Source of the DNA: a bacterium | Lineage (GTDB): Bacteria; Bacillota; Clostridia; Christensenellales; DTU072 | DNA: 64,000 nt | Assembly (NCBI GenBank): GCA_963644945.1 | Contig: CAVIQK010000008.1 | Coordinates: 879-64,878, forward strand | Direction of reading: 5' to 3' | Shown here: positions 35,467 to 64,000 of the stretch, piece after piece | Numbering within the stretch: position 1 is the first letter of the stretch | Layout of the letters: each line of letters starts with the position of its first letter | The notes under the pieces: generated by a model | Databases searched by the model: none | What the model saw: the letters and a program-made list of their open reading frames with translations, nothing else | Told to the model about the DNA's origin: nothing | Translations under genes and position numbers: made by a program

Positions 35467-35868
35467 TTATTTTATTGATATATATACAATGTATAAGATT
35501 ACCGCAATGAGAATGAAGACAGATCCTACGATTACCAAGTGCCTTACGGAGATTTTCTTTGCGTGTTTTCTTTTTCTATAATCGTAGAAATTCTCTTTTT
35601 GCGGAGTGCTGTCCTTTTTTATGTTTCTAAAACCGAACAGTCCGTGTAATCCGTAAGTAAGTCCGTCAACGACTCCCTCGTTGTAAGAGACAATCAGTCC
35701 GCCGATGCCGGCAAAGACCACTCCTACTACGAAAAATCCGTCCATCAGTTTTGCGAGAATTCTCGTCGTCGATCCACCGTCAAAGAGTCCTGTAAATATC
35801 CAAATTAAAAAGCAACAGAGGACGGCAACAAGGATGGTTATCAAATATTTTAAGAGTTTATTTTTCAC
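35467..35868 (-). CDS. DUF3899-like small membrane protein
   Basis: 133 aa, 3-4 TM helices, LMDGFFVVGVVFAGIGGL...GLTYG pattern. The GTG start overlaps the oppF end by 11 nt. Confidence 0.45.
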   Translation of the reverse strand: MKNKLLKYLITILVAVLCCFLIWIFTGLFDGGSTTRILAKLMDGFFVVGVVFAGIGGLIVSYNEGVVDGLTYGLHGLFGFRNIKKDSTPQKENFYDYRKRKHAKKISVRHLVIVGSVFILIAVILYIVYISIK

Positions 35869-39254: not shown

Positions 39255-39258
39255 AATA

Positions 39259-40824: not shown

Positions 40825-40825
40825 A

Positions 40826-41833: not shown

Positions 41834-41956
41834 AATGAGATATACTCCTCTGTAACTAAAATCTTTAGTAGTGCCTAAATCGAATAACTAAATAAACCAA
41901 GTGACACTCAAATGTCATTGTTCGCAGTGGGGCGAACTCCCTTAAAAAAATGTGTC

Positions 41957-42040
41957 AAAATCGGCTTTATCGGTCCATAAGGCCATAAAGCCGATTTTGA
42001 TAGTCGTTTGTTTTGCTGTGGCGAGATTACCTCGCCACAG
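41957..42040 (-). promoter_or_regulatory. two strong stem-loops in the oppA-oppB intergenic region (partial terminator / mRNA stabiliser)
   Basis: Hairpin 1 at 42016-42040 is CTGTGGCGAG-ATTAC-CTCGCCACAG on the plus strand (10 bp, no U-run). Hairpin 2 at 41957-41998 is AAAATCGGCTTTAT...ATAAAGCCGATTTT (14 bp). Confidence 0.55.
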
Positions 42041-42063
42041 TTTGATTGTCGATACAATGTTGC

Positions 42064-44622: not shown

Positions 44623-44834
44623 AAATCTTACCTCCAAGTAAATTTTTATAGGTTTTCTATAATTTGGTATATAATACAACTTTGTCAACTTTGATGTAAA
44701 GCGATTTTAAGTTAATTTTAATATTTTTTTTCATACCATGCTTTTTTTATCGTCAAAACAGTGATTATTGTGTTCAAAAAGGCGCTTTGTATTAAAAAAA
44801 GTAATATGAATAAATTTTGTATATGATATTTTTA

Positions 44835-44878
44835 TATAAAAATCCCCGACAGCATAGCGATGAGCATACGTGTCGGGG
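44835..44878 (-). terminator. rho-independent terminator after the 1698-aa gene
   Basis: CCCCGACA (44844-44851) pairs with TGTCGGGG (44871-44878) around a 19-nt loop, followed on the minus strand by ATTTTTATAT. Confidence 0.6.
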
Positions 44879-44912: not shown

Positions 44913-47900
44913 TTACTTTCTGGATGCGTTGTTTTCGAGTTGGCGTTTTTCGGCTTTGACATCCTCTTTTTCCTTTTTCTTCGCCTCGGTTTTCTTGTGG
45001 TCGGCTTCGGGGACGGAGATTCTTTCCATCGAATCGTCAAGGTCACTGGACATCGATCTGTCTAGGTCGCTTGATAATGACGATGATCTGCTAAGGTCGG
45101 TTTCGGTATCTTTCTTGACGGTAAAGATCTTGTCGATGCCGTCTTTTAGAGGTTGGAAATCGGGGTTATCTCTTCTTCCTGCCATTTCGTTGAACTGACG
45201 CTCATTGAGACCGGTCTTTTCTTTGGCGACTGCTTTGAATCTTGCGATAGCATTCTTTTCGGTCCTATATTTGCCGAGATAGTTGAAGAATTTTGACCAA
45301 TTGCTTCTCTTTTGGTTGTACATGTGCATTGCACGATATGTTTGTGCGATTCTCATTTGCGCTTCTTCGGTCGTAGCATCACCCGAATTGAGTTGGGCGG
45401 TGGCGTTTTCTATCATTGAACGGAAGTCGTTGTAACCGAGTCCCGATTTCCATTGATCCGATGTGAAGTCAAAGGACGGGGAATTGGCTTGCATTTGGCG
45501 AAGTGCCTTTTCTTCTTCGGTCTTGGGAACATGTTTTTCGACAAAGGAGTTTCTCATGGCTTTCAACTCCGCTTGCGACATGCAACCGTGGAAGGGGCTT
45601 GAGGGATAACCGACAACACGCAAAGCATTTCTCATGATGGTGTCGAGGGTTTCTTCGGAGCCGACCATTTGTTCTACGGTGATCGTGGTGCCGTTCTTTG
45701 CGCACTCTTTATTGATTGAATGTAATATATCCGTATATAGATCAATAAATAGCATTCTGTATTGTTTTTCGAACACTAATTTGTTGACACGTTCGCCGGT
45801 TTTGTCGGTGTTGTCGAACATGAAATCACGTACAACGTCGTCAAGTTCTTTTCTGTCGATCTTTACGCCATACTTATATGCAAGTCTTTCGTTGGGGCTC
45901 ATTTCGTCGTCTTCGTATTCGTAAGGCTCGCTTTCAAAATATTTCTCGACATATTCGGTTTCGCCACTTTCTACACTCATTCCGCCAAAATAAACTTGGA
46001 GAGTGTCGAGTTCGCCTCTGGTTGCCAAAGAGTAGGATGAACCGGGGTTGCGAGAAGGCATAGAATATTTGCCGTTCTTGTATGTCCTGAAATCAATGGC
46101 TTTGGCATTGTCGAGGGCTATTTCGAATTCCTTGCGGTCAACATCTTCCATAGCATCTCCGTCAAATACGAAGTCATTATATACAGGGTGTCCGTCTTCG
46201 GATGCATCTAGGCTGTGTTCGGGCTCGATAAAATCTTCCTTTTCTGACATGCCCATAGGCTTGACGTCGGTATTTATGATTTCTTCGACTTTCTTTACTT
46301 GTTGTTTTTTGACTTGCGGATCTCTTTCCTTTTCGAGTCCTTTTTCGATTTCAAAGACGTTGTTCATTTGGTTGACGAACGCTTCGATATCTTCGTCGAT
46401 AGGTGTGGCGATACCTGATTTCTTGTCGATTTCTTCTTCGGATACCGCACCGATTTCGATTGCCGCTTGTTTTAGGTCTTTTGCGAACTTATACATTTCT
46501 TCTCTAAGTTCTTCGACATCTATTCTAAATAGAGGATTTTCTATCAAGTTTCTAGCCAAAACATTGACACGATCGTAGAACTCTATAAGGGATGCGGTCG
46601 CAACGAGTTTGCCTTCTTCGGTAAGATTGCCGAATTCGTCCTTGTATTTTTCTGCGCCTCTTACGCATTCGAGGTTTTTGTATTGTTCCATCGGGACGTT
46701 CTTCCAACGGGAGAATGTGAATTCTATGTTGCCGATGGTTGTGCCGATTTGGTTTTCGGTCATCTTGGCAAAGAAGCCGTCATAGTGACGAGTTTCCCAA
46801 GTGGGAACACCGATTTTAATCGTGTTGACCATTTGCTCGGTGCTCATTGCTCCGTAATTGTCGACTTCCTTTTCTTCATGGCCGTAGAGTTTTAGTGCGC
46901 CTTTCATGCATCTTTCTACCATGCCGGTTGCATAAGCGAAAGGAACTTTATCTTTATAATGGTTGGTTGCGGCGGTGCCTTTCAAACCGTCCATTGCGGT
47001 GGCAAAGATCTCTTTCCAAAGAGCATTGTAGGCTTTTTTGTCAATTCTCTTTTGTGAGAATACCGCTTCAAACTTGTCAAATAGTTCGTTGGCGCTAATA
47101 TCGCATTTTGTGAAGGATACGATTTCGCCGAGTTGTTGACGGATGACGTTGGCTCTATTCAACTTGAATAGTTTTGTTTGTTCGGCTTTGTCTCTTTCGG
47201 CTCTTGCATTGTCGTCAAGGTCAAATACTTCGGTGTCGAAAACATCGCCTAGACCGAAGAAGTCTTGTTCTTCTGTCGCCGATTCTTGATAATATTTGTC
47301 GGTTTCTGCCTTTCTTTCCTTGGCTGCCGCTGCTGCAAGGTCTGCTTGATATTGACGGACACTTTCGTCACAAGCCGCTTGAATATTTGTTCTTACTGCA
47401 TCTAGACGTGCAACGGGGTTGTCGTAGTATGCGGAGAGTTTTCTTATATATTCGGGATCGTCGGTTGCGTTGCCTTGTGAGACGTCTATTGTGTCGAGGG
47501 CTACACTAAGTTGTCCGTTGTCGCCTTTTGTTATGTGAGCGAATTGGACTACACCAGTTTGGTTGATAAGAGCATGCAAGAGTTCTTTTGCCGCAGTATA
47601 TTGGCTATATTTTTTGCCGTTGGCGGTGATTTTGTCGTATATGGATACTCCGTCCACGAACACAAGGCGCATGGTGTCTTCGAAACTTGAATTTTCAAAG
47701 TGATAACTTCTCAAAATGTAAGAATCTTGGTAATCGGGAGAATATATCGTATTGATGAGTCCGAGAGTTAGATAATCGGATTCGTCGGTAAATTTGGGAT
47801 CGTTCATCGCAACGCCTTTTAGTGCCAAAGCGCTTGCAGGAAGGTCTACTTTTAATGTAGAAACACTGTCGATCTCTTGTTGGGTTTTGGATTTTTCTCT

Positions 47901-50009
47901 CTTGAAGTTGACATATTTTTGAGCAATATCTCTATAACTCTTTTTGCCTACTTCGCCCTTGTACTCTTCGAGGTCGTCGAGAAGTTCGTCTTCACCTTTT
48001 TCTTTATCGTTTCTTGTTCTGCTTATTGCGAGTTTGTCGGCATAATATCCGCTACCCATTGTTATGCCCATCATGTCTTCGAGAGCGCCCATGAATTCTG
48101 TCGAAGTGACGAAATAGTGTGCTTCGAAGGTCGAGAATTTTAGTCTATCGGCAGGGGTGGGGTAACGTTGTTCGAAATACCATTTGTTTTCGTTGAGTTT
48201 GACGGTCATTGTTTGTTGGAATCTCGAATAAGCCAACGCTCTGACAAGGTCTTCGACCGTTTCTAATTTTTGCGGAGGGGTGTAGGACTCCAAGAAATCA
48301 TAGATTTTGTCAAGATAAATCTTTATTGCATCGTGATCGTCCTCGGAAAAAGCCTTGATCATCTTCTCGTTTTCTTGTGTGAATTCTTTTTCGTCCAAAT
48401 TCTTGTCGCCCATTTTGAGAGTGCCGGCAAGTTTTAGGAGTACCGCCATATCCATAAGATCTCTTGCGTCAAAGGTAGTGTTTTTGACATTTAGGGTACC
48501 GGAATTTACAACTCTTGTTTTGGTATTTTCATAACTTTTTCTGGCTTGGTCAATGGTGAAGAATGCCATGTTTAGATTTTTCTTTTCAAATGTAAATGCA
48601 AACTTCGGCAAAGTTCTTCTTCTGATCTCTTTGGGATCGCCTTCTACGGGAAGTCCCATCTCCAAACGTTTTTCGTTAAGTTTTTTGTTTTGTTCGTCAA
48701 GTGCTTCGGTCTTGTAGCGCTCAATGAGAGATTCTTGTGTCCTTCTCTTGGCTGCTTCAAGCATTTCGGTCAAATATTTTTGTTGGGTTGCAAACAACAC
48801 TCTTCTTGCATCTTGATCGTTTTCGAGATTGGAGATTTTCTCGACATATTCGGCTTTGTCGTTGCCGTTTCTTACATCGACAACGTCCATTTTATATTCA
48901 AATCTGCCGTCTATTTCGGCTACTTGAACAAAGGATACGACACCTGTTTGGTTGGCAAGGGCATCCAAAATAATGGCGGGACCTTCTACAGGGCTGTTTT
49001 TGTCTTTCATCAAATCATAGACGCTTACTCCGTCAATGAATACAAGACGATAAGTGTTGCCCTTTTCGCCTGCCATATATTTAGAAAGTAATCCGCCACC
49101 GGTTTGGGTTGCGCCTTGTATAAGTTGGATACCGCATTCGGCTTCGGAGAGCATACTGCCTGCTTTGCGAGATACATCTCCCGACAAAGTCTTGTTGACG
49201 ATGCCGTCCAAAATTTGTTTGGGATCGAGGTCTGTTCCTTTCAAATTGTTTATCCATTCGGGGACAACCATTTTCTTGACGGATGCTTCGCCTTTTTCGG
49301 AAATGGCTTCTAGATCGATAGCATCGAGCAATGCTCCGGCAAGGGCTAGTTGCATGCCGACGCCTTCTCTGGTCGCTTCGATGCCCTCGGCACCCTTTTC
49401 TCTAACAAATTTGTCCATTTCGGTACCGTTGTCCAAAACATCGACAGAATTGGTATCCATAGTCAAGAGATAATCGTTGAGCGGATATGTGTCGGACATG
49501 GAGTGCAACATGACTTTGATTTCCATCGATTGGAGTTTCATGAGTCCGTCGAGTCCTTGATAACGGCTTCTGACATATTCCGGATATTCTCTGAGTTTTG
49601 TGACTGCCAAAGATTGTTGCGCACGATGAACTAGTCTTGTTCTGATAGATTCGTCAACGGTGTTGACATTTTCTACCGGTTGGTAATTTTCGGCAAATCT
49701 TGTCCAACGATCGAGATAATCGAAGATCTTTTCTCTGTCGTCTTCGGCAAATGCTTTGTATACTTCTCCTACAGTCCTTGCGAATTCTTCATCGGATAGT
49801 TCTCCGCCGCCGGTTCCGTCGAATTTATGTTCGTATCTCAAAAATAATGTAAGGTCAGCCAAATCTCTTATGTCGAGATGTCTGTCTTTTATTATTTGCT
49901 CTTCGGCTTTGTATTGTTGTTTTACTTCGTTAAAAAGAGCCGATGTCGCGCTGATTTTTCTTGCGGCATCCATGACCGCTTCTTTTTCCATAGTTACAAC
50001 GAATTTCAT
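44913..50009 (-). CDS. 1698-aa orphan protein, highly charged, no signal peptide/TM, internal tandem duplication
   Basis: Uninterrupted ORF with an AAGGAG SD. No P-loop, HExxH or DEAD-type motif seen by eye. Modules at aa 45-410 and 513-875 are paralogous. Ser/Asp-rich then Lys/Glu-rich C-terminus. Confidence 0.8.
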   Translation of the reverse strand: MKFVVTMEKEAVMDAARKISATSALFNEVKQQYKAEEQIIKDRHLDIRDLADLTLFLRYEHKFDGTGGGELSDEEFARTVGEVYKAFAEDDREKIFDYLDRWTRFAENYQPVENVNTVDESIRTRLVHRAQQSLAVTKLREYPEYVRSRYQGLDGLMKLQSMEIKVMLHSMSDTYPLNDYLLTMDTNSVDVLDNGTEMDKFVREKGAEGIEATREGVGMQLALAGALLDAIDLEAISEKGEASVKKMVVPEWINNLKGTDLDPKQILDGIVNKTLSGDVSRKAGSMLSEAECGIQLIQGATQTGGGLLSKYMAGEKGNTYRLVFIDGVSVYDLMKDKNSPVEGPAIILDALANQTGVVSFVQVAEIDGRFEYKMDVVDVRNGNDKAEYVEKISNLENDQDARRVLFATQQKYLTEMLEAAKRRTQESLIERYKTEALDEQNKKLNEKRLEMGLPVEGDPKEIRRRTLPKFAFTFEKKNLNMAFFTIDQARKSYENTKTRVVNSGTLNVKNTTFDARDLMDMAVLLKLAGTLKMGDKNLDEKEFTQENEKMIKAFSEDDHDAIKIYLDKIYDFLESYTPPQKLETVEDLVRALAYSRFQQTMTVKLNENKWYFEQRYPTPADRLKFSTFEAHYFVTSTEFMGALEDMMGITMGSGYYADKLAISRTRNDKEKGEDELLDDLEEYKGEVGKKSYRDIAQKYVNFKREKSKTQQEIDSVSTLKVDLPASALALKGVAMNDPKFTDESDYLTLGLINTIYSPDYQDSYILRSYHFENSSFEDTMRLVFVDGVSIYDKITANGKKYSQYTAAKELLHALINQTGVVQFAHITKGDNGQLSVALDTIDVSQGNATDDPEYIRKLSAYYDNPVARLDAVRTNIQAACDESVRQYQADLAAAAAKERKAETDKYYQESATEEQDFFGLGDVFDTEVFDLDDNARAERDKAEQTKLFKLNRANVIRQQLGEIVSFTKCDISANELFDKFEAVFSQKRIDKKAYNALWKEIFATAMDGLKGTAATNHYKDKVPFAYATGMVERCMKGALKLYGHEEKEVDNYGAMSTEQMVNTIKIGVPTWETRHYDGFFAKMTENQIGTTIGNIEFTFSRWKNVPMEQYKNLECVRGAEKYKDEFGNLTEEGKLVATASLIEFYDRVNVLARNLIENPLFRIDVEELREEMYKFAKDLKQAAIEIGAVSEEEIDKKSGIATPIDEDIEAFVNQMNNVFEIEKGLEKERDPQVKKQQVKKVEEIINTDVKPMGMSEKEDFIEPEHSLDASEDGHPVYNDFVFDGDAMEDVDRKEFEIALDNAKAIDFRTYKNGKYSMPSRNPGSSYSLATRGELDTLQVYFGGMSVESGETEYVEKYFESEPYEYEDDEMSPNERLAYKYGVKIDRKELDDVVRDFMFDNTDKTGERVNKLVFEKQYRMLFIDLYTDILHSINKECAKNGTTITVEQMVGSEETLDTIMRNALRVVGYPSSPFHGCMSQAELKAMRNSFVEKHVPKTEEEKALRQMQANSPSFDFTSDQWKSGLGYNDFRSMIENATAQLNSGDATTEEAQMRIAQTYRAMHMYNQKRSNWSKFFNYLGKYRTEKNAIARFKAVAKEKTGLNERQFNEMAGRRDNPDFQPLKDGIDKIFTVKKDTETDLSRSSSLSSDLDRSMSSDLDDSMERISVPEADHKKTEAKKKEKEDVKAEKRQLENNASRK
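47385..49877 (-). repeat. protein-level tandem duplication (two ~365-aa modules) inside the 1698-aa ORF
   Basis: Matching pairs: DIRDLADL/DARDLMDM, AFAEDDREKIFDYLD/AFSEDDHDAIKIYLD, YRLVFIDGVSVYD/MRLVFVDGVSIYD, ALANQTGVVSF/ALINQTGVVQF. All sit at a constant offset of about 460-468 aa. Confidence 0.8.
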
Positions 50010-50098
50010 GATTTTTTCTCCTTGTTTATTGATTTTGGGTGTTGTAAGTTTTTTCTATTTATTAAGACACGTTTCTTTTTCAAAAAGGTGCCAAAATT

Positions 50099-50284
50099 TT
50101 ATTTTTTCAAATTTACCGTTCTTTCTCTCTCTTTCTTTGGCTCCGAACTTTTTATGCTAGATTTATGCGATGCTTCGGGAACGGAAAATTTTTCTCTGTC
50201 GTCCATATCTAAAATTTTGCCCATGACAATTTCGAATCGATTGTCTATGTCTAGCGAATTGATGGCATTTTCTAAACTATTCAT
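50099..50284 (-). CDS. 61-aa protein, paralog of the C-terminal tail of the 1698-aa protein
   Basis: AGGAGGA SD 8 nt upstream. The ATG overlaps the sigma-factor stop by 8 nt. ...DMDDREKFSVPEASHK plus a K/E tail matches ...DLDDSMERISVPEADHK plus a K/E tail. Confidence 0.6.
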   Translation of the reverse strand: MNSLENAINSLDIDNRFEIVMGKILDMDDREKFSVPEASHKSSIKSSEPKKERERTVNLKK

Positions 50285-50798
50285 CGTAAAATCCTCCTAG
50301 TTGAGATTTTAGTTTTTTGACAAGTCTTCTATACTTGCTCTTTACGGTGTTTACCGACGAGCCTTCTTTTTCGGCAATTTCCGCAAGCGAATATCCTTCT
50401 AATATATGTTTTGATAAAAGTTCGAATTCTTCTGCGCTTGTGAGTTTTTTTATTTCGGCTATAATCTCACTGCCTTCGTCAAAACAATATGTTCCGCAAA
50501 TATTTTCGTCAAGTTCTTCGGTGGGTTTTCGGTCTCTCAGTCTATTGAGTGCCAAATTCCTTGCAGATCTCGTCAAATAATATTTTATGTTTTTTATGTC
50601 CGTCGTCCCTAGTCTGTTGTAAAAATTCACAAAGACGTCATCGGAGATTTCGTCCGTATCGCTTTTGTCCCCTAGATACCTATAAGCACAAAACCATACG
50701 AGTTTGAAGTATGTGTCGTATATTTCTCTGAATAAGGACAGTTTTGCTTCTTGCGTCCCGTTTTTTGTAAAGTTTTCAACAGTCGCTTCGAGTGTCAT
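50277..50798 (-). CDS. ECF-type sigma-70 family RNA polymerase sigma factor
   Basis: 173 aa. Region 2 (DDVFVNFY...YLTRSARNLALNRLR) and region 4 HTH (EGYSLAEIAEKEGSSVNTVKSKYRRLVKKLK). Starts 2 nt after the VirB4 stop. Confidence 0.85.
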   Translation of the reverse strand: MTLEATVENFTKNGTQEAKLSLFREIYDTYFKLVWFCAYRYLGDKSDTDEISDDVFVNFYNRLGTTDIKNIKYYLTRSARNLALNRLRDRKPTEELDENICGTYCFDEGSEIIAEIKKLTSAEEFELLSKHILEGYSLAEIAEKEGSSVNTVKSKYRRLVKKLKSQLGGFYDE

Positions 50799-54852: not shown

Positions 54853-55563
54853 CTACTTAATACAAATCAGCATTGCCGTAAAGCACATTTCGATTTTTTC
54901 GTCGCCTTTTTCAATTCCCTCTTGATCGTTGTACGTGACACAGTTGTTGTTTATCTTGAAGAGTAAACACTTGTCCTTTTCGAGAACAACCGACGATGCC
55001 GAATTGGTGCCGTCCGTCCACTGTTTGAGGGTAAACGAGGTCCAATTTCCTGCTTTTACGGAAACGGTGATCGAGCCTATTTTGTTTTCGCTTTTCGGCT
55101 CGTCAAAAGATTTTAACCTTTTCTTTTCTTCACCGGTATCTTCGTCGGTATAAGTTTCGAAGTCGGTGTCCGTCCCCGTTGCTATCGAAGACGGCATGTC
55201 ACTTACGATATACGCTTCGATATTCAGTCTTGCATCGCTTTTTGAACATAGATATATTGCGAACTCTCTTATTTCGACATTTTCGCCCGCAAATACTCCC
55301 ATATATTTGTAAGCATTGCTTTTTGTGGGGCAGACGAAATCGTCTTTTCTAAAATTGTTGAGAGCATTGTCGTTGTAGAGGTCTGTAATCGGCATGGACA
55401 CCACCGTCAAATCGTTGTTGACAAATTTGACGCTAGGGAACTTTTTGCCGTAGTCGGCCTCATCTTCTATGTTCAAGTCGGGCATACAACCGAATAACAA
55501 TACGGAAATTGCTATAAGGCAGATAAAACTTAAAAGTCTTTTTCCCGTCTTACGCTCCGACAT
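54853..55563 (-). CDS. T4SS-associated lipoprotein
   Basis: ATG 55563 gives MSERKTGKRLLSFICLIAISVLLFGC (lipobox LFGC). The track start at 55614 is TTG inside the upstream gene. The mature part looks rich in beta-strand. Confidence 0.65.
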   Translation of the reverse strand: MSERKTGKRLLSFICLIAISVLLFGCMPDLNIEDEADYGKKFPSVKFVNNDLTVVSMPITDLYNDNALNNFRKDDFVCPTKSNAYKYMGVFAGENVEIREFAIYLCSKSDARLNIEAYIVSDMPSSIATGTDTDFETYTDEDTGEEKKRLKSFDEPKSENKIGSITVSVKAGNWTSFTLKQWTDGTNSASSVVLEKDKCLLFKINNNCVTYNDQEGIEKGDEKIEMCFTAMLICIK

Positions 55564-55858
55564 AAGTAGGCCACCATTTCTCAAATACGGTGAGACCGAC
55601 TTGCAACATTGCAAGCAATACGAATATCAAAACAAATCCGATGATAGCATTTTTAAGTGCTTTTTTGGCTTTGTCGTGATCTTGAGGTTCTTCGGCTTTG
55701 GCATATTTTACACCAAGCAAGATGCAGTAAATTGCACCGATAGAACCGACAACACCCAACAAAACGGGGACCAATACATCGCATACGTCGAGTATCGGTT
55801 TTACGATTTTTTCGAGATCGCCTTGAGACATCCCTGTTGCTAAAAGATTGTAAATCAT
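55550..55858 (-). CDS. small 2-TM pilin-like (VirB2/TrbC-like) protein
   Basis: 102 aa. Two hydrophobic helices (VLVPVLLGVVGSIGAIYCILLGV and AIIGFVLIFVLLAMLQVGL) are joined by a charged loop. AGGAGA SD. Confidence 0.45.
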   Translation of the reverse strand: MIYNLLATGMSQGDLEKIVKPILDVCDVLVPVLLGVVGSIGAIYCILLGVKYAKAEEPQDHDKAKKALKNAIIGFVLIFVLLAMLQVGLTVFEKWWPTYVGA

Positions 55859-55895: not shown

Positions 55896-58800
55896 TTACT
55901 CTATTCTAGAACGTTTTCTAAACAACAATCCTAGGAAAAGCCCTATTGAGATCGCAACCACTACGCCTATTATGAGTACGGTCGTTGCGATGTTGGCGGT
56001 ATATACTCTTGTGAATTCTACTTCACTTTGTCCGCCCGCCTCGTTGACTACTACTATTTTATAATTACCTTTTTCGGTAATCTCCGGAACATCCGACACT
56101 GTGAGCGCTTCGATCGTGTTGACTAATTCGCCGTCTTTATAAATATATATCGTGTCGCCTGCTTTGTATCCGGATATTTTTACGTTCTTGTTGGTCGATT
56201 CGCCTTCGGCTACACCTTCAAGTGTAATTGTAGGCACTGATTTGTCGATTGTCACCGAAAATGCGGTTGTTTTTCCCGTAACGGGTGACATCATAACGAT
56301 TTTATATTCACCGTTTTCGTCTAGTGCTATATATTTGCAACCGTCTTTTTCTTCGACAAACTCGATGTAATCTACTTCGCCACCGCCTGCATTGAAAGTG
56401 GCTTCGGTGATTTCATAGCCGTAAGGTGCCGTATATTCGAACGAAACAAGCGCATGTGTCACAATGTAGAACGAGAAGTAATCTTTGTTCCCGCATTCGT
56501 CTTGTAGCACGACTTCCCACTTGCCGTTGCCGGTAAACGAGGTTAGATCATAGTCTAACATCTCTTTGCCGTCATGATATACTGCACAATAAGACACAGA
56601 ATCGCCGTTTAAGGGTGCAAAGTAAACGACGGACATGTTGGTTATTTCGCCGTTGACAAGTTTTTGGTCAACGCTACCCGTATAGAAACAGTAGTCTGCG
56701 ACGCTATCTCTTCTTACCGAATAGTTGAGCGTGTTGCCTGCTTTGTCGCTTACCGAAATGACATAACTTCCGTCTCTCATATATTTTTCGCCACTCTTAT
56801 ATGCCCCTATCTCTTGGTTGTTGATAGATATTACTGCGGACAAATTGGCGGAGAAAGTAATCGATACGGGATCTTTGGTCACTCCGGAATTGACTTTCAT
56901 GTTGTCAACACCTATTTCTATCGTGGTGCGATACAACACACACGAAAACTTGTACGAAAAACCGTATTCGTCGGTATATTCTATATTATACTCATATTTA
57001 CCGCTGTCAAAGGTTCCGGGGAAACTGAGTGTATAAGGAATATCTTTGGTTTCGGAATTGACTTTGAACAGATATTTCTTTGCTTTGGTTTCAAAAGATA
57101 TGGTCTTGTTGCTCCAAATACTATTATCGACAAGCGGAGAGTCTAGCGAATAAGCCGTCTTTTTGAGATCTCTTGTTTCTCTCGATACGGAAAGCGTCGT
57201 ATGAGATGAATAATTGACGGTTTTTGCGACCTTGTTGCCGTAAATATCTCTAAATACTATTTCATATACTCCGTCACCGTCTGCACCGACTTTGTAATCG
57301 CTAGCGAACGAAACTTTTGTTTCGGATGAATTGTCATATATTACGGTCAACTTTTCGCCATAGGCTACCGTTATATACTCGACACTCGCTCCTTTCAATG
57401 TATTTTCGACAAAAGACACTTGGGTATTGGTATATCCCTCGTCTTTTCGCAAAGCCTTTTCGTTGAAGCCCGTAAGCCATCCGTCGGAATATTTGATAGA
57501 TTTATTCTTGATATGAATATTTCTTGTGACTACGTTGCCACAGTCATCCGTCAAAGTGACGACATATTCGCCGTCGCCTCCTACGGAGATTTGGGTATAT
57601 GTATCCGTTGTTTTTACGGTGTAAGACTTGTATGCGGAGCCGTTTTTGGTGACCGCCACCGTTACATTTTTATAGACGATAAGCGACACAGAACTATTGG
57701 AATAGAAATCGCCCTCGTATGTAGTGGAATAAGACTTGGTGCTTCCGTCGGTATAAGTGATTTCGCCGACTGTCGCAATACCTACGCTGTACAGCACTCT
57801 TGTTTCGGAGTAGTTGCCGTACTTGTTGTAAACATGGAACACATAGAAGCCTTCGCCCAGTCTTCCGCACTCGTAAGTGCCACCCAGAGCGACATCTTCA
57901 AATTCTGCTTGTTCAAAACTTATAGGCGAATAATTCACAAGTACGGTTGTCACTTCGGCTTCTAAAGTCAAAGGACAAATCTCGTTTATATTCAAAATAT
58001 CGGTTAGTCTTACGTCAACACCGTCTTTTTGGTAAGTTAGATACGAACATTCGTCCGACAATACGATTTTGGAATATTTGGTATCTATCGCAGAGGAGGA
58101 ACTGACTCTCAAAGCAATTTCCATTTTGTTGACTTTGCCTTGAACTGCATCTTTTAGTACGGCACCGACATAGACTATGCCGTTTCTAGCATAAGTTCTG
58201 ATGTAACCGCCGTCGGTTTCGCCTATTGTGATGTATGTTGTCGGCAAAACACCCAAATCGACTTCTTCTTCAGCCGTTTTGAGTTCGCCACTTTCGTCTA
58301 TTACAACCTTGTAGATTGTACGAATCAAATTGGATCCGTCGGTAGTCAACTTGAAATATTCTCCGTCCACGACGAAAGCAAACGTTCCGGCACCTTCTAC
58401 CGTAGCAACAGCATATTCGTGACCGTATTTTGTACTGCTTTTTTCGAATTCGAGTTCTTCGACGTCGTCAATAATCATCCTTGTAAAATCGGACTTTCCT
58501 ATTGAGAACGAGAAGGATGTTTGATTGCCGATAAGGTCGGTGGCGGTTATTTGGTAAGTGCCTTCGGTACTCAACTGAATGCTTGACACTTTGTCCCCTA
58601 AATACTCCGTAGTTTTGCCGTTTATCGTACAAGTCCACTTGTATATTCCGGAAAGGTCACCTACCCCTATATTTACGATACCGCCGTTGACGGTTTCGCC
58701 CGAAGCAATTGTTTCGGTCACTATATCGGTAAGTTCGCAACTCACGTCGTCAAGGTTGATAACATCGCCCGATTTTGCGGTGTCTTTGATCTTTTGGAGA

Positions 58801-61800
58801 TATCTTGCAAGGGCATCTTCGTCCTCGTCTGCATACCAATATTTTGTTCTACTTGTAGTAGCCGAAATTGTAGGCGCATAAGTATCGCTTTGTCCCGTAA
58901 AGGTCACGAAAAGATCGGGATAATCTTCGTAATAAATCTTTACTTGCCACGAAGAATCACCGCTCATAACGACTTCGTTGTATGTGCCGGTATGTCTTAG
59001 GGTGCTTGTCCCCAAAACCATTTCGTAAGCATAACCTTCGCCCGTAGGATAACGGAAACTTACTTGTCCCGCTGTCGTTATCAGGTAGTTGGTCGAGCCG
59101 ATTTTTTCTTTTATAAAGCCTACTTGCGTGCCGGCGGTTTCGTCATACTTAATCGGGGTGCCGTCCTTTACGTAGTACCAATCTACTTTAGGAACTTCTC
59201 TTACAAGAGTAGTTCTTTCTTCATAGACGTTGCCGAATAAGTCTTCTATATAGAATCTATATTCGCCTGCATCTTTTAGGGTGATTGCGTTTTTCTTGAG
59301 CGACGAAACATTGCTTACGATAAGAACGTCGTCAAGATATATTTCAAAACGATAAATATCGTCTTGCGAATATTTGCACTCGAATCTTACGTATTTGTTC
59401 TTTTCGTTGGTGAATGAACATGCCGAACTAAGATCTTCGGTGCTTATTCTTACGTTTAGGCTGTAATTGTTGCCGGAGCGGTCATATACTCTTACTATGT
59501 ATCTTCCTTCTCCGAGGCTTATTCCGCTTGCTTCGCTTACAAGATATGCACCTTGGTATTTTTCGCCCGACGTAAACACTGCAATATAGGCATATTCGTC
59601 CTCGTCAGTCAAGGTGTCGAAAGTGAAAGATTTTACGTTGAGCGATTGGCTACGGTCGGCAAAATCTTTGGTTATGGTTATTTCGTTGTTATCATATATA
59701 ACTTTAAGTTCCGGAGCAGTGTTGTCGATATATACGCTATATTCTCTTACGCCGTCTTCGCCTCTCTCTATAATGTCATATATGCCGGTACCTTTGATGA
59801 GGTCTTTTAGATAAAATTCTCCGTCAAGAGTCAATTTTTCGTATGTCGTCCCCGTCACGTGTTCTTTATAGTAGATCGTCGTATAGTCGGATGCCGTCAA
59901 TTTTTGTACGGCTATAGGATAAGAGATGTTTTCTTCTACGTGATAAGGTGAATAAATGCCCGAATCTCCGCCGAACGAAACGGGGGAAGTGAAGAAGTAG
60001 CCCGTCATGGTTTTGTCCGCAGTTTCCGATTGCGAACGAATCCTTGAAGCATCGAGTGTCGGCACTCCTCTACTGTCGAGTCCGCCGTCACTGGTCAAAT
60101 ATGTATATGAGCCTTTATCGACGATTTTGTCAACAACGGTGATAATAGCCGTCCTTAACGATGACGACAATGCGGCAGTGTTGATTTGGGTTTCTTGACT
60201 GTTGCTGTAAAAATAATAGTTCCAATAGGTAGAATCGCTTACTTGATCCCACGATTTAGATTTATATCTTATCCATGTTTGTCCGATAGCGGCAGTGCCT
60301 TCGCCTTCGGCTTTTTTGTAGTTGGATGCAATGGTGCCGTTCAGGACATCCACAACCGACTGCGTGTCAACGTAAAGAAGGGACAAGTCTTGCATTTCCA
60401 TATAGTAGCAATAGTCATAAGCCCTTTCTCTTGACGAGAACATGAGAGTAAGATTTTTTGACTTGTTATAACTTGTCGATTCTGCCGTACTGTTGGACGA
60501 TGCGTAGTAATACGAAACGTCTTTGAGTTCATATACTTTGTTGACGATAAGGGGGCTTCCCGTAGTCGATTGATAGCAAGAAACGTTGTCGTTGTCGCCT
60601 TTTAGATAGAAGGTATAGACTTCGGACTTCTTGCCGTCACCGGAGATTCTGATAGAATAATTGCCACCGCTAGCACTCTTATATTTGAGAGTAAGGACTT
60701 TTTTCGTAGTAGAGCCTTCCGCTACATCGGAAATCGTACTATCAAAATAATTGCTTATGTTTGCGGTTATGTTTTCGCTACCTCTATATAGATAATCGAC
60801 TTGTGGCTCCGATGTAGAACCTTGTAGCGAAAAAGTGAGTTCGAATCCGCTTGCCAAATATGTATTGTCATAAGAATGGTCTGTTTCGTTGATCACAGTC
60901 ATATCGCTGACGTTTATCGTGTCATAAATCGAATATTTTGTACCCGAAATGCCCATATTGATGTTGCAATGGTCGGATGTATCGAATAAATAGGCGTCGT
61001 CTAAAACATATTCGTCTTGATTGGATGCTCCGTCGTAGGTCACAAAACTGAAATAGAATTTCATGCTTTCGGCATCGGATAGTCCTAAAAGATCTTTGCC
61101 GGATACGGTCATTGTGCCGGTTGAAGTATTGGAAGCGTCATCATAAGTAAACGATGCTATTTCGTTGGTCGTAGGCGATACTTTGTTTTGAGTGTAGATG
61201 GTTTTGCGAGAATATCCTAGCATGCCCACTTGTCTATAATACATCTCTACGGACGTGAGATCCGTAGCATTCCCTTCTACTGTGATGGTTAGATCTCTTG
61301 TCGAAACCGCCGCATTGACGTCGCCAAAAGATATGCTCTTGATGTTTATCGGGGTATTGTCAAAATTGAGAGGTGTAGAAACATGTCCCAAAACTTCTTT
61401 GCCGTAAGCAGAGACTGCTTTGTAGTAAAGATAATATGTTCCGTCCATCTTGTCGCCTATTACATTGACTTCGGACGGATTGACGGTTTCGCAACCTACA
61501 TAACTTGTCGGTTGATATTCGTCGGCATTTCCTACTATATCGGTAGATTTTACCCATGTATAATAGAGTTTTGAACCGACTCCTTCCATGTTGGATACGG
61601 TGATTTTTACCGAGTGAGATTTGGATGTCAAATGTTCGTTGCTAACAATCTTGGTAGTGACTGCGGGATCTCTCAAATCAATGTCCGTAGAATAGGTAAT
61701 TCCTTGGAATTCTCCCATGTTTACGGCATTGTTGCTACAATTAAAATTGTATGCATAGTCATAAAGACCGGTAGCGAATTGCGAACTAAAAGTATCGTAA

Positions 61801-63302
61801 TTTCTAAATCTAATACTTGTTATCTTGGTACGTGTATAATCGAACTCGTTTTCATAGTCTTTGAGATTGCACTCAAAATACAGCGTATCGGTACCCTCTC
61901 CGCCTACATATTTGAAGTCGAGGGGCATTTTTCCGCTGTCATTGGCATAACCCGTTATGGTCAAGTTTTTGGCGGTGTCGTTGGTCAAGAAGTGAACAGG
62001 CTCCGAGAATCTGACCGAAAATCTCAAAACTTTGTTGTCGGTCGAAGCGATCTCGTCAAATGACGTACTCTTCAAGGTGGGGGCATTGTTGTCGTATAGT
62101 TCGCTGTCTATTCTGAGTCCTGCAAAAACCATGTCCCAACTGGAATCTCTTGCTATTCTCAAATTGAATGTTTCGGAATTGTTTTTGTATATCTTGCCCG
62201 TAACCGACGGGAAATTGAAATATTGTTTTGAGTAGTAAGAATAGGCATGTTTATACATGGGATCTTGCGTATTATAGACGGTGTATCCCTTGTGATTGTT
62301 GAGCCAACTTCTCGCTGCGTTGGTGAGATTGTATCTATATTCGGAATTATTGTTTTGGGCATAACCCGTTTCGCCGAACAAAATCGGTACACCGCTACAT
62401 TTAGGATCGTAATATTCGGAATAGAAAACTTCGTTCCCGCTACTATCGGAAATGGTCAATTTTGCGGGAGTATCGACTGTACACCAACCACTTTCGGAAA
62501 TGGTCGCAGATCCGCCGTAATAGACGTCTGCCCAGTCTTGTTTGTGGTACTTGATATAGTAATCGTTGGAAATGAATCTTGAAAAAGTTTGGTTTAGAGT
62601 GGTGTCTTCATCTACGTAAATCGCAATATAGCGTGTAGGTGTTTGGTAATAGACATTGCCTCTTTCTATCCAAATAGACGCAAAACTGTTGCCGTAGAGA
62701 TAATCGTCGAAATATAAGCCGTTTTTCCCTTCTATTTTTGAAAATGCATAGTCATATTCGGTAAGCACTCTGCAATCAAAGATTTGTGAGCCTTGTTCGG
62801 TCGCGTTGAAGTCGTTTTTGACGACGTAGTCGCAACCGCTGTCCGTCACGATATTGCATAGGACTATTTCGAAAACTCTCGTTGTTCCGTAAGTCTTTTC
62901 GCCTTCTACGAGGTTGGTGGCATCCGTTTGGTAGGTTTGTACGCTAAAATATTGCGTGGCGCCTTTGGTTGCCGACGTGGTGATTTTGTAGTCTTTAGAT
63001 TGAGATGTATAGTCGCCCTTTTCGGAAATTGCACTTTTATCCCTTGTGGTCAACGTAAAACTTATGCCGTCGTTTTTCTTGGTTACGGCGACTCCTACGG
63101 TAATTTTGCCGGCAGAGTCCGGAATAAGATTGCCGTTGTCGTCTTTGTCGTTGGAGGAAAAGAACACAATATTCATTGTGGTTTCGTCGGTTGCGACAAG
63201 TGTCGATGCCTCCGCCACCGTATCTATATTTAGAAACGGAACGACGCAAAAGGCAAGCGCCAAGACTAAGATAATCGTTATTCTAAAAACTTTCTTTTTC
63301 AT
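55896..63302 (-). CDS. 2468-aa surface protein: signal peptide, multi-domain ectodomain with >=11 Ig-like repeats, C-terminal TM anchor
   Basis: N-terminus MKKKVFRITIILVLALAFCVVPFLNIDTVAEA. C-terminus ...NIATTVLIIGVVVAISIGLFLGLLFRKRSRIE. No LPXTG. Recurrent G-x-Y-x-hydrophobic-x-hydrophobic-x-D-x-x-G-N strand signature. Confidence 0.85.
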   Translation of the reverse strand: MKKKVFRITIILVLALAFCVVPFLNIDTVAEASTLVATDETTMNIVFFSSNDKDDNGNLIPDSAGKITVGVAVTKKNDGISFTLTTRDKSAISEKGDYTSQSKDYKITTSATKGATQYFSVQTYQTDATNLVEGEKTYGTTRVFEIVLCNIVTDSGCDYVVKNDFNATEQGSQIFDCRVLTEYDYAFSKIEGKNGLYFDDYLYGNSFASIWIERGNVYYQTPTRYIAIYVDEDTTLNQTFSRFISNDYYIKYHKQDWADVYYGGSATISESGWCTVDTPAKLTISDSSGNEVFYSEYYDPKCSGVPILFGETGYAQNNNSEYRYNLTNAARSWLNNHKGYTVYNTQDPMYKHAYSYYSKQYFNFPSVTGKIYKNNSETFNLRIARDSSWDMVFAGLRIDSELYDNNAPTLKSTSFDEIASTDNKVLRFSVRFSEPVHFLTNDTAKNLTITGYANDSGKMPLDFKYVGGEGTDTLYFECNLKDYENEFDYTRTKITSIRFRNYDTFSSQFATGLYDYAYNFNCSNNAVNMGEFQGITYSTDIDLRDPAVTTKIVSNEHLTSKSHSVKITVSNMEGVGSKLYYTWVKSTDIVGNADEYQPTSYVGCETVNPSEVNVIGDKMDGTYYLYYKAVSAYGKEVLGHVSTPLNFDNTPINIKSISFGDVNAAVSTRDLTITVEGNATDLTSVEMYYRQVGMLGYSRKTIYTQNKVSPTTNEIASFTYDDASNTSTGTMTVSGKDLLGLSDAESMKFYFSFVTYDGASNQDEYVLDDAYLFDTSDHCNINMGISGTKYSIYDTINVSDMTVINETDHSYDNTYLASGFELTFSLQGSTSEPQVDYLYRGSENITANISNYFDSTISDVAEGSTTKKVLTLKYKSASGGNYSIRISGDGKKSEVYTFYLKGDNDNVSCYQSTTGSPLIVNKVYELKDVSYYYASSNSTAESTSYNKSKNLTLMFSSRERAYDYCYYMEMQDLSLLYVDTQSVVDVLNGTIASNYKKAEGEGTAAIGQTWIRYKSKSWDQVSDSTYWNYYFYSNSQETQINTAALSSSLRTAIITVVDKIVDKGSYTYLTSDGGLDSRGVPTLDASRIRSQSETADKTMTGYFFTSPVSFGGDSGIYSPYHVEENISYPIAVQKLTASDYTTIYYKEHVTGTTYEKLTLDGEFYLKDLIKGTGIYDIIERGEDGVREYSVYIDNTAPELKVIYDNNEITITKDFADRSQSLNVKSFTFDTLTDEDEYAYIAVFTSGEKYQGAYLVSEASGISLGEGRYIVRVYDRSGNNYSLNVRISTEDLSSACSFTNEKNKYVRFECKYSQDDIYRFEIYLDDVLIVSNVSSLKKNAITLKDAGEYRFYIEDLFGNVYEERTTLVREVPKVDWYYVKDGTPIKYDETAGTQVGFIKEKIGSTNYLITTAGQVSFRYPTGEGYAYEMVLGTSTLRHTGTYNEVVMSGDSSWQVKIYYEDYPDLFVTFTGQSDTYAPTISATTSRTKYWYADEDEDALARYLQKIKDTAKSGDVINLDDVSCELTDIVTETIASGETVNGGIVNIGVGDLSGIYKWTCTINGKTTEYLGDKVSSIQLSTEGTYQITATDLIGNQTSFSFSIGKSDFTRMIIDDVEELEFEKSSTKYGHEYAVATVEGAGTFAFVVDGEYFKLTTDGSNLIRTIYKVVIDESGELKTAEEEVDLGVLPTTYITIGETDGGYIRTYARNGIVYVGAVLKDAVQGKVNKMEIALRVSSSSAIDTKYSKIVLSDECSYLTYQKDGVDVRLTDILNINEICPLTLEAEVTTVLVNYSPISFEQAEFEDVALGGTYECGRLGEGFYVFHVYNKYGNYSETRVLYSVGIATVGEITYTDGSTKSYSTTYEGDFYSNSSVSLIVYKNVTVAVTKNGSAYKSYTVKTTDTYTQISVGGDGEYVVTLTDDCGNVVTRNIHIKNKSIKYSDGWLTGFNEKALRKDEGYTNTQVSFVENTLKGASVEYITVAYGEKLTVIYDNSSETKVSFASDYKVGADGDGVYEIVFRDIYGNKVAKTVNYSSHTTLSVSRETRDLKKTAYSLDSPLVDNSIWSNKTISFETKAKKYLFKVNSETKDIPYTLSFPGTFDSGKYEYNIEYTDEYGFSYKFSCVLYRTTIEIGVDNMKVNSGVTKDPVSITFSANLSAVISINNQEIGAYKSGEKYMRDGSYVISVSDKAGNTLNYSVRRDSVADYCFYTGSVDQKLVNGEITNMSVVYFAPLNGDSVSYCAVYHDGKEMLDYDLTSFTGNGKWEVVLQDECGNKDYFSFYIVTHALVSFEYTAPYGYEITEATFNAGGGEVDYIEFVEEKDGCKYIALDENGEYKIVMMSPVTGKTTAFSVTIDKSVPTITLEGVAEGESTNKNVKISGYKAGDTIYIYKDGELVNTIEALTVSDVPEITEKGNYKIVVVNEAGGQSEVEFTRVYTANIATTVLIIGVVVAISIGLFLGLLFRKRSRIE
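55950..59520 (-). repeat. array of diverged Ig-like/beta-sandwich modules within the 2468-aa ORF
   Basis: Module-end signatures: GRYIVRVYDRSGNNY, GEYRFYIEDLFGNVY, GTYQITATDLIGNQT, GFYVFHVYNKYGNYS, GEYVVTLTDDCGNVV, GVYEIVFRDIYGNKV, GKYEYNIEYTDEYGF, GSYVISVSDKAGNTL, GKWEVVLQDECGNKD, GEYKIVMMSPVTGKT, GNYKIVVVNEAGGQS. Confidence 0.7.
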
Positions 63303-63317
63303 CTATGTTATAGTCCT

Positions 63318-64000
63318 TCAAGACATACTCTCAAGTCTTGCAAAAATTTCACTTTCGGTGAGTTCTTTGTGTGCTTCTCTAAACTTTACGAATCTTTCAA
63401 AGAGTCTGGTTTCTTCTGCGAGTTTTTCTTTCTCTTCGTCTTCTTCGGTTGTGGGTTTTGTATTGCTTCCCATCTTCATGGTAGCACCCGTATTTTGATT
63501 GTCGTCTTCACTCGACAACACGAGATCGTTGCGTTTTTCCGCATCAAAATATATGGCATGCTCGTCAAAGAATCTTTCGCTGAGAAAATCGGTGTTCATT
63601 GTGCCGGTCTTGTATAGCGGGACCTTAAAACTCGGGGTGAAATAACTTTTTAGCGGATAGTTGCCGAACGTGACGATGATGGAGTGTCCTATGTCCGAGC
63701 CATGATTGAGTCTTTGGAGTTCGGACGGATAAATAAGAGGTCTTACTTGTGTTTGGGTAGAAACATTTACCGATTTATCCATATCCGTTCCGCTTGTCGA
63801 ACGAGTGACGACCGTAATATTTCCGCATAGTTCGGAAAATTCTTTACATGTCCCCATGTCGTTAGATCCTATAAACATTTTGATTCCGCAGTTGCCTTTG
63901 ATTATATCGGCGACTTTATCGCCATAGACGTTGTTTAGTTGCGAATATGATTGCACGATCATATTGAACCAAATCTTACGGCTTCTTCCGACGGTAATCA
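63318..64000 (-). CDS. VirD4/TraG-type type IV coupling protein, C-terminal part (N-terminus beyond window)
   Basis: The frame stays open to the window edge (...ITVGRSRKIWFNMIVQSYSQLNNVYGDKVADIIKGNCGIKMFIGSNDMGTCKEFSELCG). This is the conserved QS-SQL-YG...NC... block of T4CPs. Acidic C-terminal tail. Confidence 0.75.
   Translation of the reverse strand, partial: ITVGRSRKIWFNMIVQSYSQLNNVYGDKVADIIKGNCGIKMFIGSNDMGTCKEFSELCGNITVVTRSTSGTDMDKSVNVSTQTQVRPLIYPSELQRLNHGSDIGHSIIVTFGNYPLKSYFTPSFKVPLYKTGTMNTDFLSERFFDEHAIYFDAEKRNDLVLSSEDDNQNTGATMKMGSNTKPTTEEDEEKEKLAEETRLFERFVKFREAHKELTESEIFARLESMS

Follow-up and report, generated by a model that had tools for sequence, protein, structure and literature searches.

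A short C-terminal motif shared by a giant protein and a small, putative sigma-factor partner at a type IV secretion locus of uncultured gut bacteria

The systems that most closely resemble the locus analyzed here are those in which an alternative sigma factor is tied to a secretion machine. The locus lies in a 64-kb stretch of contig CAVIQK010000008.1 from a bacterium of the order Christensenellales ("the window" denotes this whole stretch, to which all coordinates refer unless another locus is named), and comprises genes of a type IV secretion system (T4SS) followed by genes for a sigma factor of the extracytoplasmic function (ECF) type, a small protein of 61 amino acids (aa) and a giant protein of 1698 aa, the last two of which share a short peptide motif near their C-termini. 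In the FlgM/sigma-28 system, a small, largely disordered protein is likewise paired with an alternative sigma factor, the targets of this sigma factor are late substrates of a secretion machine, and the regulator leaves through the machine of these substrates, as it would, by export or capture, in the model that we propose below. The differences are that the machine is of type III (flagellar) there and of type IV here, that the export signal of FlgM is N-terminal, and that Pfam detects no sequence homology between FlgM and the small protein. We know of no motif that FlgM has in common with the late substrates. In Bordetella, according to the account in PMC10732220, an ECF sigma factor, BtrS, controls secretion genes, its antagonist BtrA (BspR) is a substrate of the same system, and the secretion of BtrA requires a CesT-family chaperone of the type III secretion system (T3SS). 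On that account, secretion activity feeds back on transcription via an ECF sigma factor, as it would in our model, the difference being that the Bordetella system is a T3SS in a diderm bacterium. Our literature searches yielded no T4SS counterpart of the flagellar or T3SS checkpoint that relies on a secreted anti-sigma factor.

T4SS substrates are recognized by the coupling protein through a C-terminal signal that occupies the last 30-50 residues, within a disordered and charged tail, as exemplified by VirB/D4 substrates with their Arg-rich tails and by the Dot/Icm E-block. Whereas these signals are compositional, the motif considered here has a sharp I-x-V-x-E-A core located ~30-45 residues from the end. 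For the T4SS of monoderm bacteria that resembles the machinery of Mycoplasma integrative and conjugative elements (ICE), we know of no defined protein substrate or signal, no literature search having been aimed at this point. A further parallel is the Clostridioides pathogenicity locus (PaLoc), where a small, dedicated alternative sigma factor, TcdR, is encoded beside the giant genes of secreted toxins and drives them, and where a negative regulator is encoded as well; the differences are that TcdR is a group-5 sigma factor, that TcdC is membrane-associated, that toxin release is holin-like and not by a T4SS, and that, to our knowledge, the regulator and the toxin have no motif in common. The T4SS module of the Mycoplasma ICE (CDS5, CDS15, CDS16 and CDS17) resembles the present cluster in that the VirB4, polytopic transmembrane (TM) and pilin-like proteins match the Mbov_0397, Mbov_0396 and Mbov_0395 families, respectively, with the coupling protein encoded upstream in this cluster. 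Unlike that module, the present cluster uses genetic code 11, adjoins housekeeping genes and includes a sigma factor, none being among the ICEA determinants listed in PMC6030558. In Mycoplasma genitalium, the small proteins RrlA and RrlB are reported in PMC6105099 to be needed for the function of sigma-20.

The original prediction held that the small open reading frame (ORF) is a free-standing copy of the C-terminal tail of the giant protein. Both ORFs are present where they had been placed, with the sequences given, and so are the AGGAGGA Shine-Dalgarno (SD) sequence of the small ORF and the 8-nt overlap of its start with the stop of the sigma gene (50277-50284). The small ORF reads ...LDMDDREKFSVPEASHKSS...NLKK and the giant protein ends in ...DLDDSMERISVPEADHKKTEAKKKEKEDVKAEKRQLENNASRK, and the motif common to the two is (E)(R/K)-I/F-S-V-P-E-A-x-H-K. 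Across the six frames of the window, SVPEA occurs twice, once in each of these ORFs. Local alignment of the two proteins pairs DMDD-REKFSVPEASHK with DLDDSMERISVPEADHK at a Smith-Waterman score of 65, compared to a mean of 37.8 (standard deviation, 4.9) for shuffled controls, none of which, in 1000 trials, reached the observed score. The expectation value (E) of the single pair in BLASTP is 0.005, and the profile-profile comparison of the small family with the giant family (hhalign) gives a probability of 95.6% and E = 1.2e-8 over 18 columns. Thus, the resemblance is real and beyond chance, and the notion of a copied tail holds for ~18 homologous residues, the profile comparison detecting no homology in the remainder of the tail.

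The motif is retained in all 24 members of the small family and in all 11 tails of giant orthologues and paralogues that we examined, with the consensus (E)(R/K)-I-(S/T)-V-x-E-A-x-H-(K/R). SVPEA-x-HK, which had been called invariant, is so within the window; across the relatives, the invariant part is I-x-V-x-E-A alone, the proline being replaced by S, N, E or I, and the H/K residues being frequent but not universal. In the small family, I-x-V/I-x-E-A occupies a fixed position in all 22 clusters and in two distant members. The giant tails carry ERISVPEADH, EQITVPEADH, EQIVVSEADH, ERISVNEADH, I/TRISVEEADH, EKISVPEADH, IKFTVEEANH, EKITAPEANE and EKISVIEAEN. In five giant orthologues, I1664, V1666, E1668 and A1669 (numbering of the window protein) are invariant and the rest of the tail is unalignable; the corresponding V35, E37 and A38 are invariant in 22 small proteins. 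The distance from the start of the motif to the stop is 31 residues in the small proteins scanned, all of which have it in one alignment column, and 36-46 residues in the giants. The synonymous sites of the motif codons differ between loci, which indicates that selection acts on the peptide and not on DNA; a DNA-level element in place of a peptide motif is ruled out because synonymous positions vary in all motif codons. The idea that the motif is a functional module is supported: it is kept in orthologous loci, and relatives possess the small ORF, which shows constraint at the protein level in them. An acidic, D-rich stretch that had been included in the shared layout is, by contrast, a peculiarity of this genome and not a feature of either family (flank permutation, p = 0.74-0.90).

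Apart from the small and giant proteins, which score between 18.9 and 34.7 with a position-specific scoring matrix (PSSM) of the motif, background maxima are 13.0 in the window together with 8 related loci and 15.7 in 1.05 Mb from 80 more distant T4SS loci. Neither regular expressions nor the PSSM detected a third carrier (the coupling protein, VirB4, the 2468-aa surface protein of the cluster or others) in the window and the 8 loci, nor did the PSSM in the 1.05 Mb; hence, among the proteins scanned, the motif was not found on unrelated cargo, the small and giant families being its sole carriers. By structure prediction with AlphaFold2 (AF2), the motif is a short linear motif inside disordered C-terminal tails, in agreement with the disorder anticipated in the original prediction. 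In its location within the C-terminal ~50 residues of disordered and charged tails, it resembles known T4SS signals, the two tails in the window having isoelectric points (pI) of 9.5-9.9.

The cluster has relatives in at least nine loci with the gene order surface giant, pilin-like protein, lipoprotein, TM protein, VirB4, sigma, small and giant, not every one of which spans the whole cluster. The proposed position of the two motif-bearing genes at the distal end of the T4SS operon stands, the complete order in the window being coupling protein, surface giant, pilin, lipoprotein, TM protein, VirB4, sigma, small and giant. Compared with their counterparts in the window, VirB4 is 81-85% identical (over the full length), sigma 58-68%, the small protein 43-61% and the giant 34-38%. 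The small ORF of the syntenic loci is always 61-62 aa long; its start overlaps or abuts the stop of the sigma gene, or is separated from it by a few nucleotides in relatives, in all loci, and GGAGG precedes its ATG by 7-9 nt, again in all loci. In the loci compared, small and sigma genes are either both present or both absent. The sigma factor itself matches Pfam Sigma70_r2 (39.5 bits) and Sigma70_r4_2 (31.5 bits), both above the cutoffs, as well as NCBIfam TIGR02937 sigma70-ECF (60.4 bits; cutoff 42.9), and with the sigma2 and sigma4 regions alone and a length in the range of ~170-200 aa, it has the make-up of ECF (group 4) factors.

The small family comprises 24 members of 59-65 aa. An initial word-indexed search with the small protein returned just the query itself, whereas a profile search gave 22 clusters (59-62 aa). 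An exhaustive HMMER search over 1.84 billion representative proteins retrieved 6 clusters and added two distant members (P0028 and P0029), with no longer or annotated relatives; a metagenome scan with the family profile found no member. The invariant residues in 22 sequences (M1, I8, L11, N15, R16, K23, V35, E37 and A38) fall into two conserved modules, one being a helical segment at the N-terminus and the other the motif. In the AF2 prediction (22 sequences), residues 3-10 and 13-29 are helical and residues 30-61, which include the motif, lack secondary structure; the mean predicted local distance difference test (pLDDT) score is 64. The protein has no TM segment, an N-terminal half with a pI of 4.1 and a C-terminal half with a pI of 9.9, and no match in Pfam or NCBIfam; there is no HxxxCxxC zinc motif or other Cys/His pattern, just the two short predicted helices. 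It is encoded directly downstream of the sigma gene and, to judge from the coupling and the co-occurrence, is co-transcribed with it, as is expected of anti-sigma factors, and like FlgM and BtrA it is small, soluble and largely disordered. We infer that the small protein is the cognate partner of the sigma factor, most likely, its anti-sigma factor.

A candidate promoter element may link the sigma factor to the giant. The sequence GCACC-N16-GTGTCT has two exact matches in the window, both on the minus strand, with 0 expected (100 shuffles). One of these lies in the intergenic region between the small and giant genes, where alignment reveals a block, TTTTGCACC(C)-N-GTGTCTTAAT, that is conserved in all 9 sigma-bearing loci. 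The other is embedded in the coding sequence of the surface protein, upstream of the pilin, VirB4, sigma and small genes, and is found at the same codon position in 7 loci; in the 6 loci tabulated, its synonymous sites are invariant (TTT GCA CCy ... GTG TCT TAT), whereas the neighbouring codons vary. Because of this position, the embedded copy looks like an autoregulatory promoter, probably an internal, sigma-dependent one that serves pilin-VirB4-sigma-small. The element also precedes giant paralogues located outside the operon, in L010 (from the same metagenome-assembled genome, MAG, as L007) and in L013. In L009, VirB4 is followed directly by the giant gene, and sigma, small and both promoter copies are missing: a consensus TATAAT occurs in the AT-rich intergenic region, and FTSLNNDIVEI stands at the embedded site. 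The sigma-type promoter is also missing from L003/L006. Together, these patterns would be explained if the sigma factor transcribes the giant gene(s) and its own operon including the T4SS genes. A further match with a different spacing, GCACC-N17-GTGTCT at 41065-41092 on the plus strand, falls within a permease gene of the opp operon and is probably due to chance because its spacing and orientation differ from those of the conserved copies. In L010, the giant paralogue has a (GCAAAA)n microsatellite (~9660-9720) after its sigma-type promoter and ahead of its start codon, which could make for a phase-variable 5' untranslated region.

The giant protein lacks a signal peptide and TM segments, and neither Pfam nor NCBIfam recognizes a domain in it. 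Four orthologues were found in databases (34-36% identity), and a scan of species-representative genomes yielded 13 loci, with an overall identity to the orthologues of 34-38%, so that the giant diverges ~5 times faster than VirB4; paralogues occur within one genome. AF2 predicts that the C-terminal 409 aa form an all-alpha domain (predicted template modelling score, 0.67), followed by a linker that carries the motif (pLDDT 26-45) and a Lys/Glu helix; no significant fold match for the C-terminal domain was found in the PDB (best E = 0.18, template modelling score < 0.2). Residues ~17-400 and ~510-870 appear as an internal duplication, with 513-868 aligning to the N-terminal region of the orthologues at 26-31% identity. 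Beyond the stop of the giant gene, a hairpin that can be read directly from the sequence (Table 1) is likely an intrinsic terminator that ends the operon; the terminator scan did not flag it, probably because its loop is longer than 8 nt.

In more distant relatives, other genes occupy the position of the giant. In L027 (5565-7915; also in L028), which has the same T4SS, a sigma factor and a small protein of 65 aa, the next gene encodes not a giant but a 494-aa DnaJ J-domain protein, and the promoter element is found directly upstream of the sigma gene and again before the J-domain gene. A type II-A Cas9 locus follows. In 80 metagenome loci that are more distant (L029-L108; VirB4 identity, 44-67%), no sigma, small or giant gene is present, and the gene after VirB4 varies, encoding mostly soluble proteins of ~240 to 3155 aa. 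In the closest group among these (VirB4 identity, 59-67%), the encoded proteins (490-3155 aa) are soluble and unrelated, and most of them have charged, low-complexity tails. The position after VirB4 thus looks like a variable cargo slot, and the giant itself, being soluble, orphan, fast-evolving, duplicated within genomes and encoded in a slot that holds unrelated proteins in relatives, appears cargo-like. Some of the slot proteins of 2900-3155 aa show another repeated tail pattern, for instance, GERVSIDIDEE or GERIVIDLDDD. In L047 (8120-9246) and L030 (8841-9179), a 112-aa ORF located downstream of an unrelated 857-aa protein after VirB4 ends with 33 residues (TRESIIVSEAMED...LKE) that weakly resemble the tail of the small protein (hmmsearch E = 0.006; hhalign probability, 37%), and it is coupled through an ATGA overlap of its stop to the gene of a 263-aa OmpR-like regulator, which begins there; as a weak lead, a tail of the small type may be paired with another kind of transcription factor, too. 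Overall, the small and giant families are unannotated orphans in a narrow group of human-gut MAGs, and neither the exhaustive profile search for the small protein nor the searches with the giant recovered homologues outside this lineage. The taxonomic labels of the MAGs in L004-L016, which carry nearly identical forms of the cluster (VirB4 identity, 81-85%), (Parasutterella, Coriobacteriaceae, Butyrivibrio, Ruminococcus, Eubacterium and others) are mutually inconsistent, probably wrong, and were not used.

How, then, could these parts work together? Because the small protein is made with the sigma factor and the giant appears to be the target of that factor, the shared peptide links the regulator and its output. 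The original prediction had left open whether the motif is a translocation signal or a docking or processing site, or whether the small protein acts as a decoy or regulator. The sigma-type promoter before the giant, which is lost along with sigma and small in L009, strengthens the regulator or decoy option, and it is compatible with a translocation or docking signal as well. The giant of L009 retains ISVPEADH although sigma and small are absent there, which argues that the motif of the giant serves the giant itself rather than sigma binding and suggests that the motif primarily provides the giant with a site for docking or export, which the small protein imitates. The reading that we prefer, tentatively and with a probability of roughly 0.38, is a secretion-coupled switch in which the small protein would be an anti-sigma factor that imitates the docking or export motif of the cargo, so that T4SS capacity would control the sigma factor. 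Under this scheme, the sigma factor would transcribe the giant gene(s) and, by autoregulation, the T4SS genes; the small protein would hold the sigma factor through its conserved N-terminal helices; and the shared motif would mark both proteins for docking or export and be recognized by a part of the T4SS, the coupling protein being the likeliest candidate. A competent machine would export or sequester the small protein via the same site that accepts the tail of the giant, and removal of the small protein would free the sigma factor and switch on the cargo. The more specific proposal that this is the first secretion-coupled sigma/anti-sigma checkpoint on a T4SS, with the small protein exported or captured by the coupling protein and the ECF sigma factor released, is doubtful.

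Several observations weigh against the secretion-coupled switch. The signature of a class I or II anti-sigma domain is not detected in the small protein by Pfam or NCBIfam, and neither Pfam nor the exhaustive profile search relates it to FlgM. The assignment of GCACC-N16-GTGTCT as a promoter is a comparative one. In the J-domain protein of L027, there is just a weak look-alike of the motif, HHIAVEEPQS, below the 12-bit reporting threshold. The tails of two giants (L003/L006 and L009) are not Lys-rich, those of L009 and L003 not being basic, and the motif of L003 is degenerate. The flanks of the motif in the small and giant proteins of the same genome are no more similar to each other than those from different genomes (permutation p = 0.74-0.90), and neither co-variation nor gene conversion between them is seen in this test. 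The residue after E-A differs systematically, being S/A in the small proteins and D/N in the giants, so that the two versions of the motif might bind different partners or the same partner with different affinity. Finally, the T4SS may be purely conjugative, and we know of no evidence of protein secretion by machinery of the Mycoplasma-ICE type.

Some of the same observations can be accommodated by other explanations, of which the least improbable, though we consider it unlikely, is product feedback. Here, the motif would be a sigma-binding peptide in both the small protein and the giant, with no secretion signal involved, and the unsecreted giant, as it accumulates, would shut its own promoter. 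In favour of this, the sigma factor, the small protein and the sigma-type promoter before the giant form one module; the motif is the most conserved part of both tails, and its H-K/R extension is best kept in the operon copies, less so in the two promoter-bearing paralogues, and is lost in the promoterless L003/L006. The intact ISVPEADH of L009, a locus without the operon sigma and small genes and without a sigma-type promoter, does not fit this explanation, and the equally conserved N-terminal helical segment of the small protein is a more usual sigma-binding element. We deem improbable, too, that the motif is a shared degron, chaperone-binding site or processing site that controls the stability or maturation of both proteins, with the giant being turned over or processed in parallel with regulated proteolysis of the anti-sigma factor. 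Such proteolysis is how ECF anti-sigma factors are most commonly inactivated, a short linear motif in disordered tails close to the C-terminus would be in line with such a role, and the fixed distance of 31 residues to the C-terminus of the small protein would suit a site defined by position. Against this, the conserved cluster includes no protease or chaperone gene, the motif resembles no known degron or sorting signal, with no hydrophobic anchor and no ssrA-like terminus, and it is confined to one lineage, whereas housekeeping proteases are universal.

Quite improbable, in our estimate, is that the small protein is a positive co-factor or stabilizer of the sigma factor, comparable to RrlA/RrlB, or an operon protein unrelated to it, the motif being a relic that descends from the 3' end of the giant gene and is kept for different reasons in each protein. 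Small proteins required by an alternative sigma factor are indeed described for Mollicutes in PMC6105099, and the lack of an anti-sigma domain signature, the absence of co-variation between the flanks of small and giant, and the systematic difference in the residue after E-A would all be expected. What such an explanation does not readily account for is an identical invariant core in two families whose tails are otherwise similar at noise level, which is hard to envisage unless both bind the same partner. That the resemblance is due to chance, or the ORF spurious, for which one could invoke the shortness of the match (8 of 9 residues) and the modest E value of the single-pair BLASTP comparison, has a negligible probability and is refuted by the comparative data: beyond the shuffling and hhalign results, 24 small and 11 giant sequences retain the motif while differing at synonymous sites, and the small ORF keeps its length (~61 aa) and its SD sequence across loci.

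The secretion-coupled switch, which we prefer over these alternatives, involves a machine with recognizable components (Table 1). The coupling protein, which is 784 aa long where its full length can be seen (L023/L024), matches Pfam TraG-D_C (72 bits), T4SS-DNA_transf and TrwB_AAD_bind. The surface protein contains a BiPBP_C match and shows 46-56% identity in the loci where it is included. The pilin-like protein matches the Mbov_0395 family of NCBIfam (52.1 bits; cutoff 40) and PF18895 (T4SS_pilin), and the polytopic protein matches MMCAP2_0566 (157 bits; cutoff 90) and Mbov_0396 (113 bits; cutoff 70) of NCBIfam; the putative lipoprotein has no family match. VirB4 scores 583.4 bits with NCBIfam VirB4_plasma (the Mbov_0397 family ICE ATPase), just below the cutoff of 590. 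By these matches, in particular, the combination of the Mbov_0396/MMCAP2_0566 TM protein with the Mbov_0395 pilin, the machine is a T4SS of the Mycoplasma-ICE type.

Table 1. Genes and sequence elements of the T4SS-sigma-cargo cluster in the window
Feature	Coordinates	Strand	Remarks
Hairpin CCCCGACA...TGTCGGGG then ATTTTTAT, likely terminator	44836..44878	-	read directly from the sequence
Giant protein, 1698 aa, soluble, acidic	44913..50009	-	putative sigma-controlled T4SS cargo
Motif ERISVPEADHK in the giant protein	44994..45026	-	begins 37 residues before the stop; followed by a Lys/Glu-rich helix
Candidate sigma-dependent promoter GCACC-N16-GTGTCT(TAAT)	50065..50091	-	small-to-giant intergenic region; conserved block
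Small protein, 61 aa, soluble	50099..50284	-	translationally coupled to the sigma gene
Motif EKFSVPEASHK in the small protein	50162..50194	-	begins 31 residues before the stop
ECF-type sigma-70 family sigma factor, 173 aa, sigma2 + sigma4 only	50277..50798	-	Pfam, NCBIfam
VirB4-type ATPase with a fused N-terminal membrane segment, 877 aa	50801..53434	-	Pfam P-loop_TraG, DUF87
Polytopic membrane protein of the mating channel, 459 aa	53461..54840	-	four TM-like segments
Putative lipoprotein, 236 aa as called in public assemblies	54853..55563	-	one N-terminal hydrophobic segment
Pilin-like T4SS protein, 102 aa, two TM segments	55550..55858	-	NCBIfam, Pfam, TM scan
Surface protein, 2468 aa, signal peptide and C-terminal TM anchor	55896..63302	-	first gene after the coupling protein
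Second GCACC-N16-GTGTCT copy, inside the 2468-aa gene (FAPLNGDSVSY)	56592..56618	-	240 codons before the stop
T4SS coupling protein (VirD4/TraG type), C-terminal part	63318..64000	-	gene runs past the window end

The window is chromosomal, with tyrS, the gene for glyceraldehyde-3-phosphate dehydrogenase (GAPDH), glycogen genes and the opp operon. The cluster always adjoins the opp operon within this species, and the downstream context differs between species. Upstream of the coupling protein there is a gene for a 557-aa protein, as far as which the upstream context was covered, and no DDE transposase or relaxase was seen in the ~30 kb examined. The opp operon (35858-44688, minus strand) encodes unusually long components, namely, OppA of 874 aa, OppC of 521 aa and OppD of 730 aa with a split ATP-binding cassette domain. 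Insertions of this kind in Opp components are associated with Mollicutes-like lineages, so that the long components fit the matches of the T4SS to the Mycoplasma-ICE type.

The regulatory logic that we propose is itself known, namely, an ECF sigma factor with a co-transcribed partner that is possibly a secreted anti-sigma factor, whereas the sigma-promoter-cargo module and the shared motif appear to be undescribed so far. The analysis suggests an undescribed circuit by which uncultured gut bacteria would tie the expression of genes to a type IV secretion machine, and it bears on how the T4SS of monoderm bacteria select protein substrates and couple expression to activity. The parts of this circuit are compact: one ECF sigma factor, two conserved candidate promoters, a 61-aa partner, and an 11-residue motif that this partner has in common with the apparent target of the sigma factor. 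Should the secretion model fail, the sigma-promoter-cargo module would still be a new regulon on a conjugation-type machine. If the model is true, the motif would be the first sharply defined linear recognition or translocation motif for a monoderm (Mycoplasma-ICE-type) T4SS, and such T4SS in uncultured human-gut bacteria would deliver very large, fast-evolving proteins.

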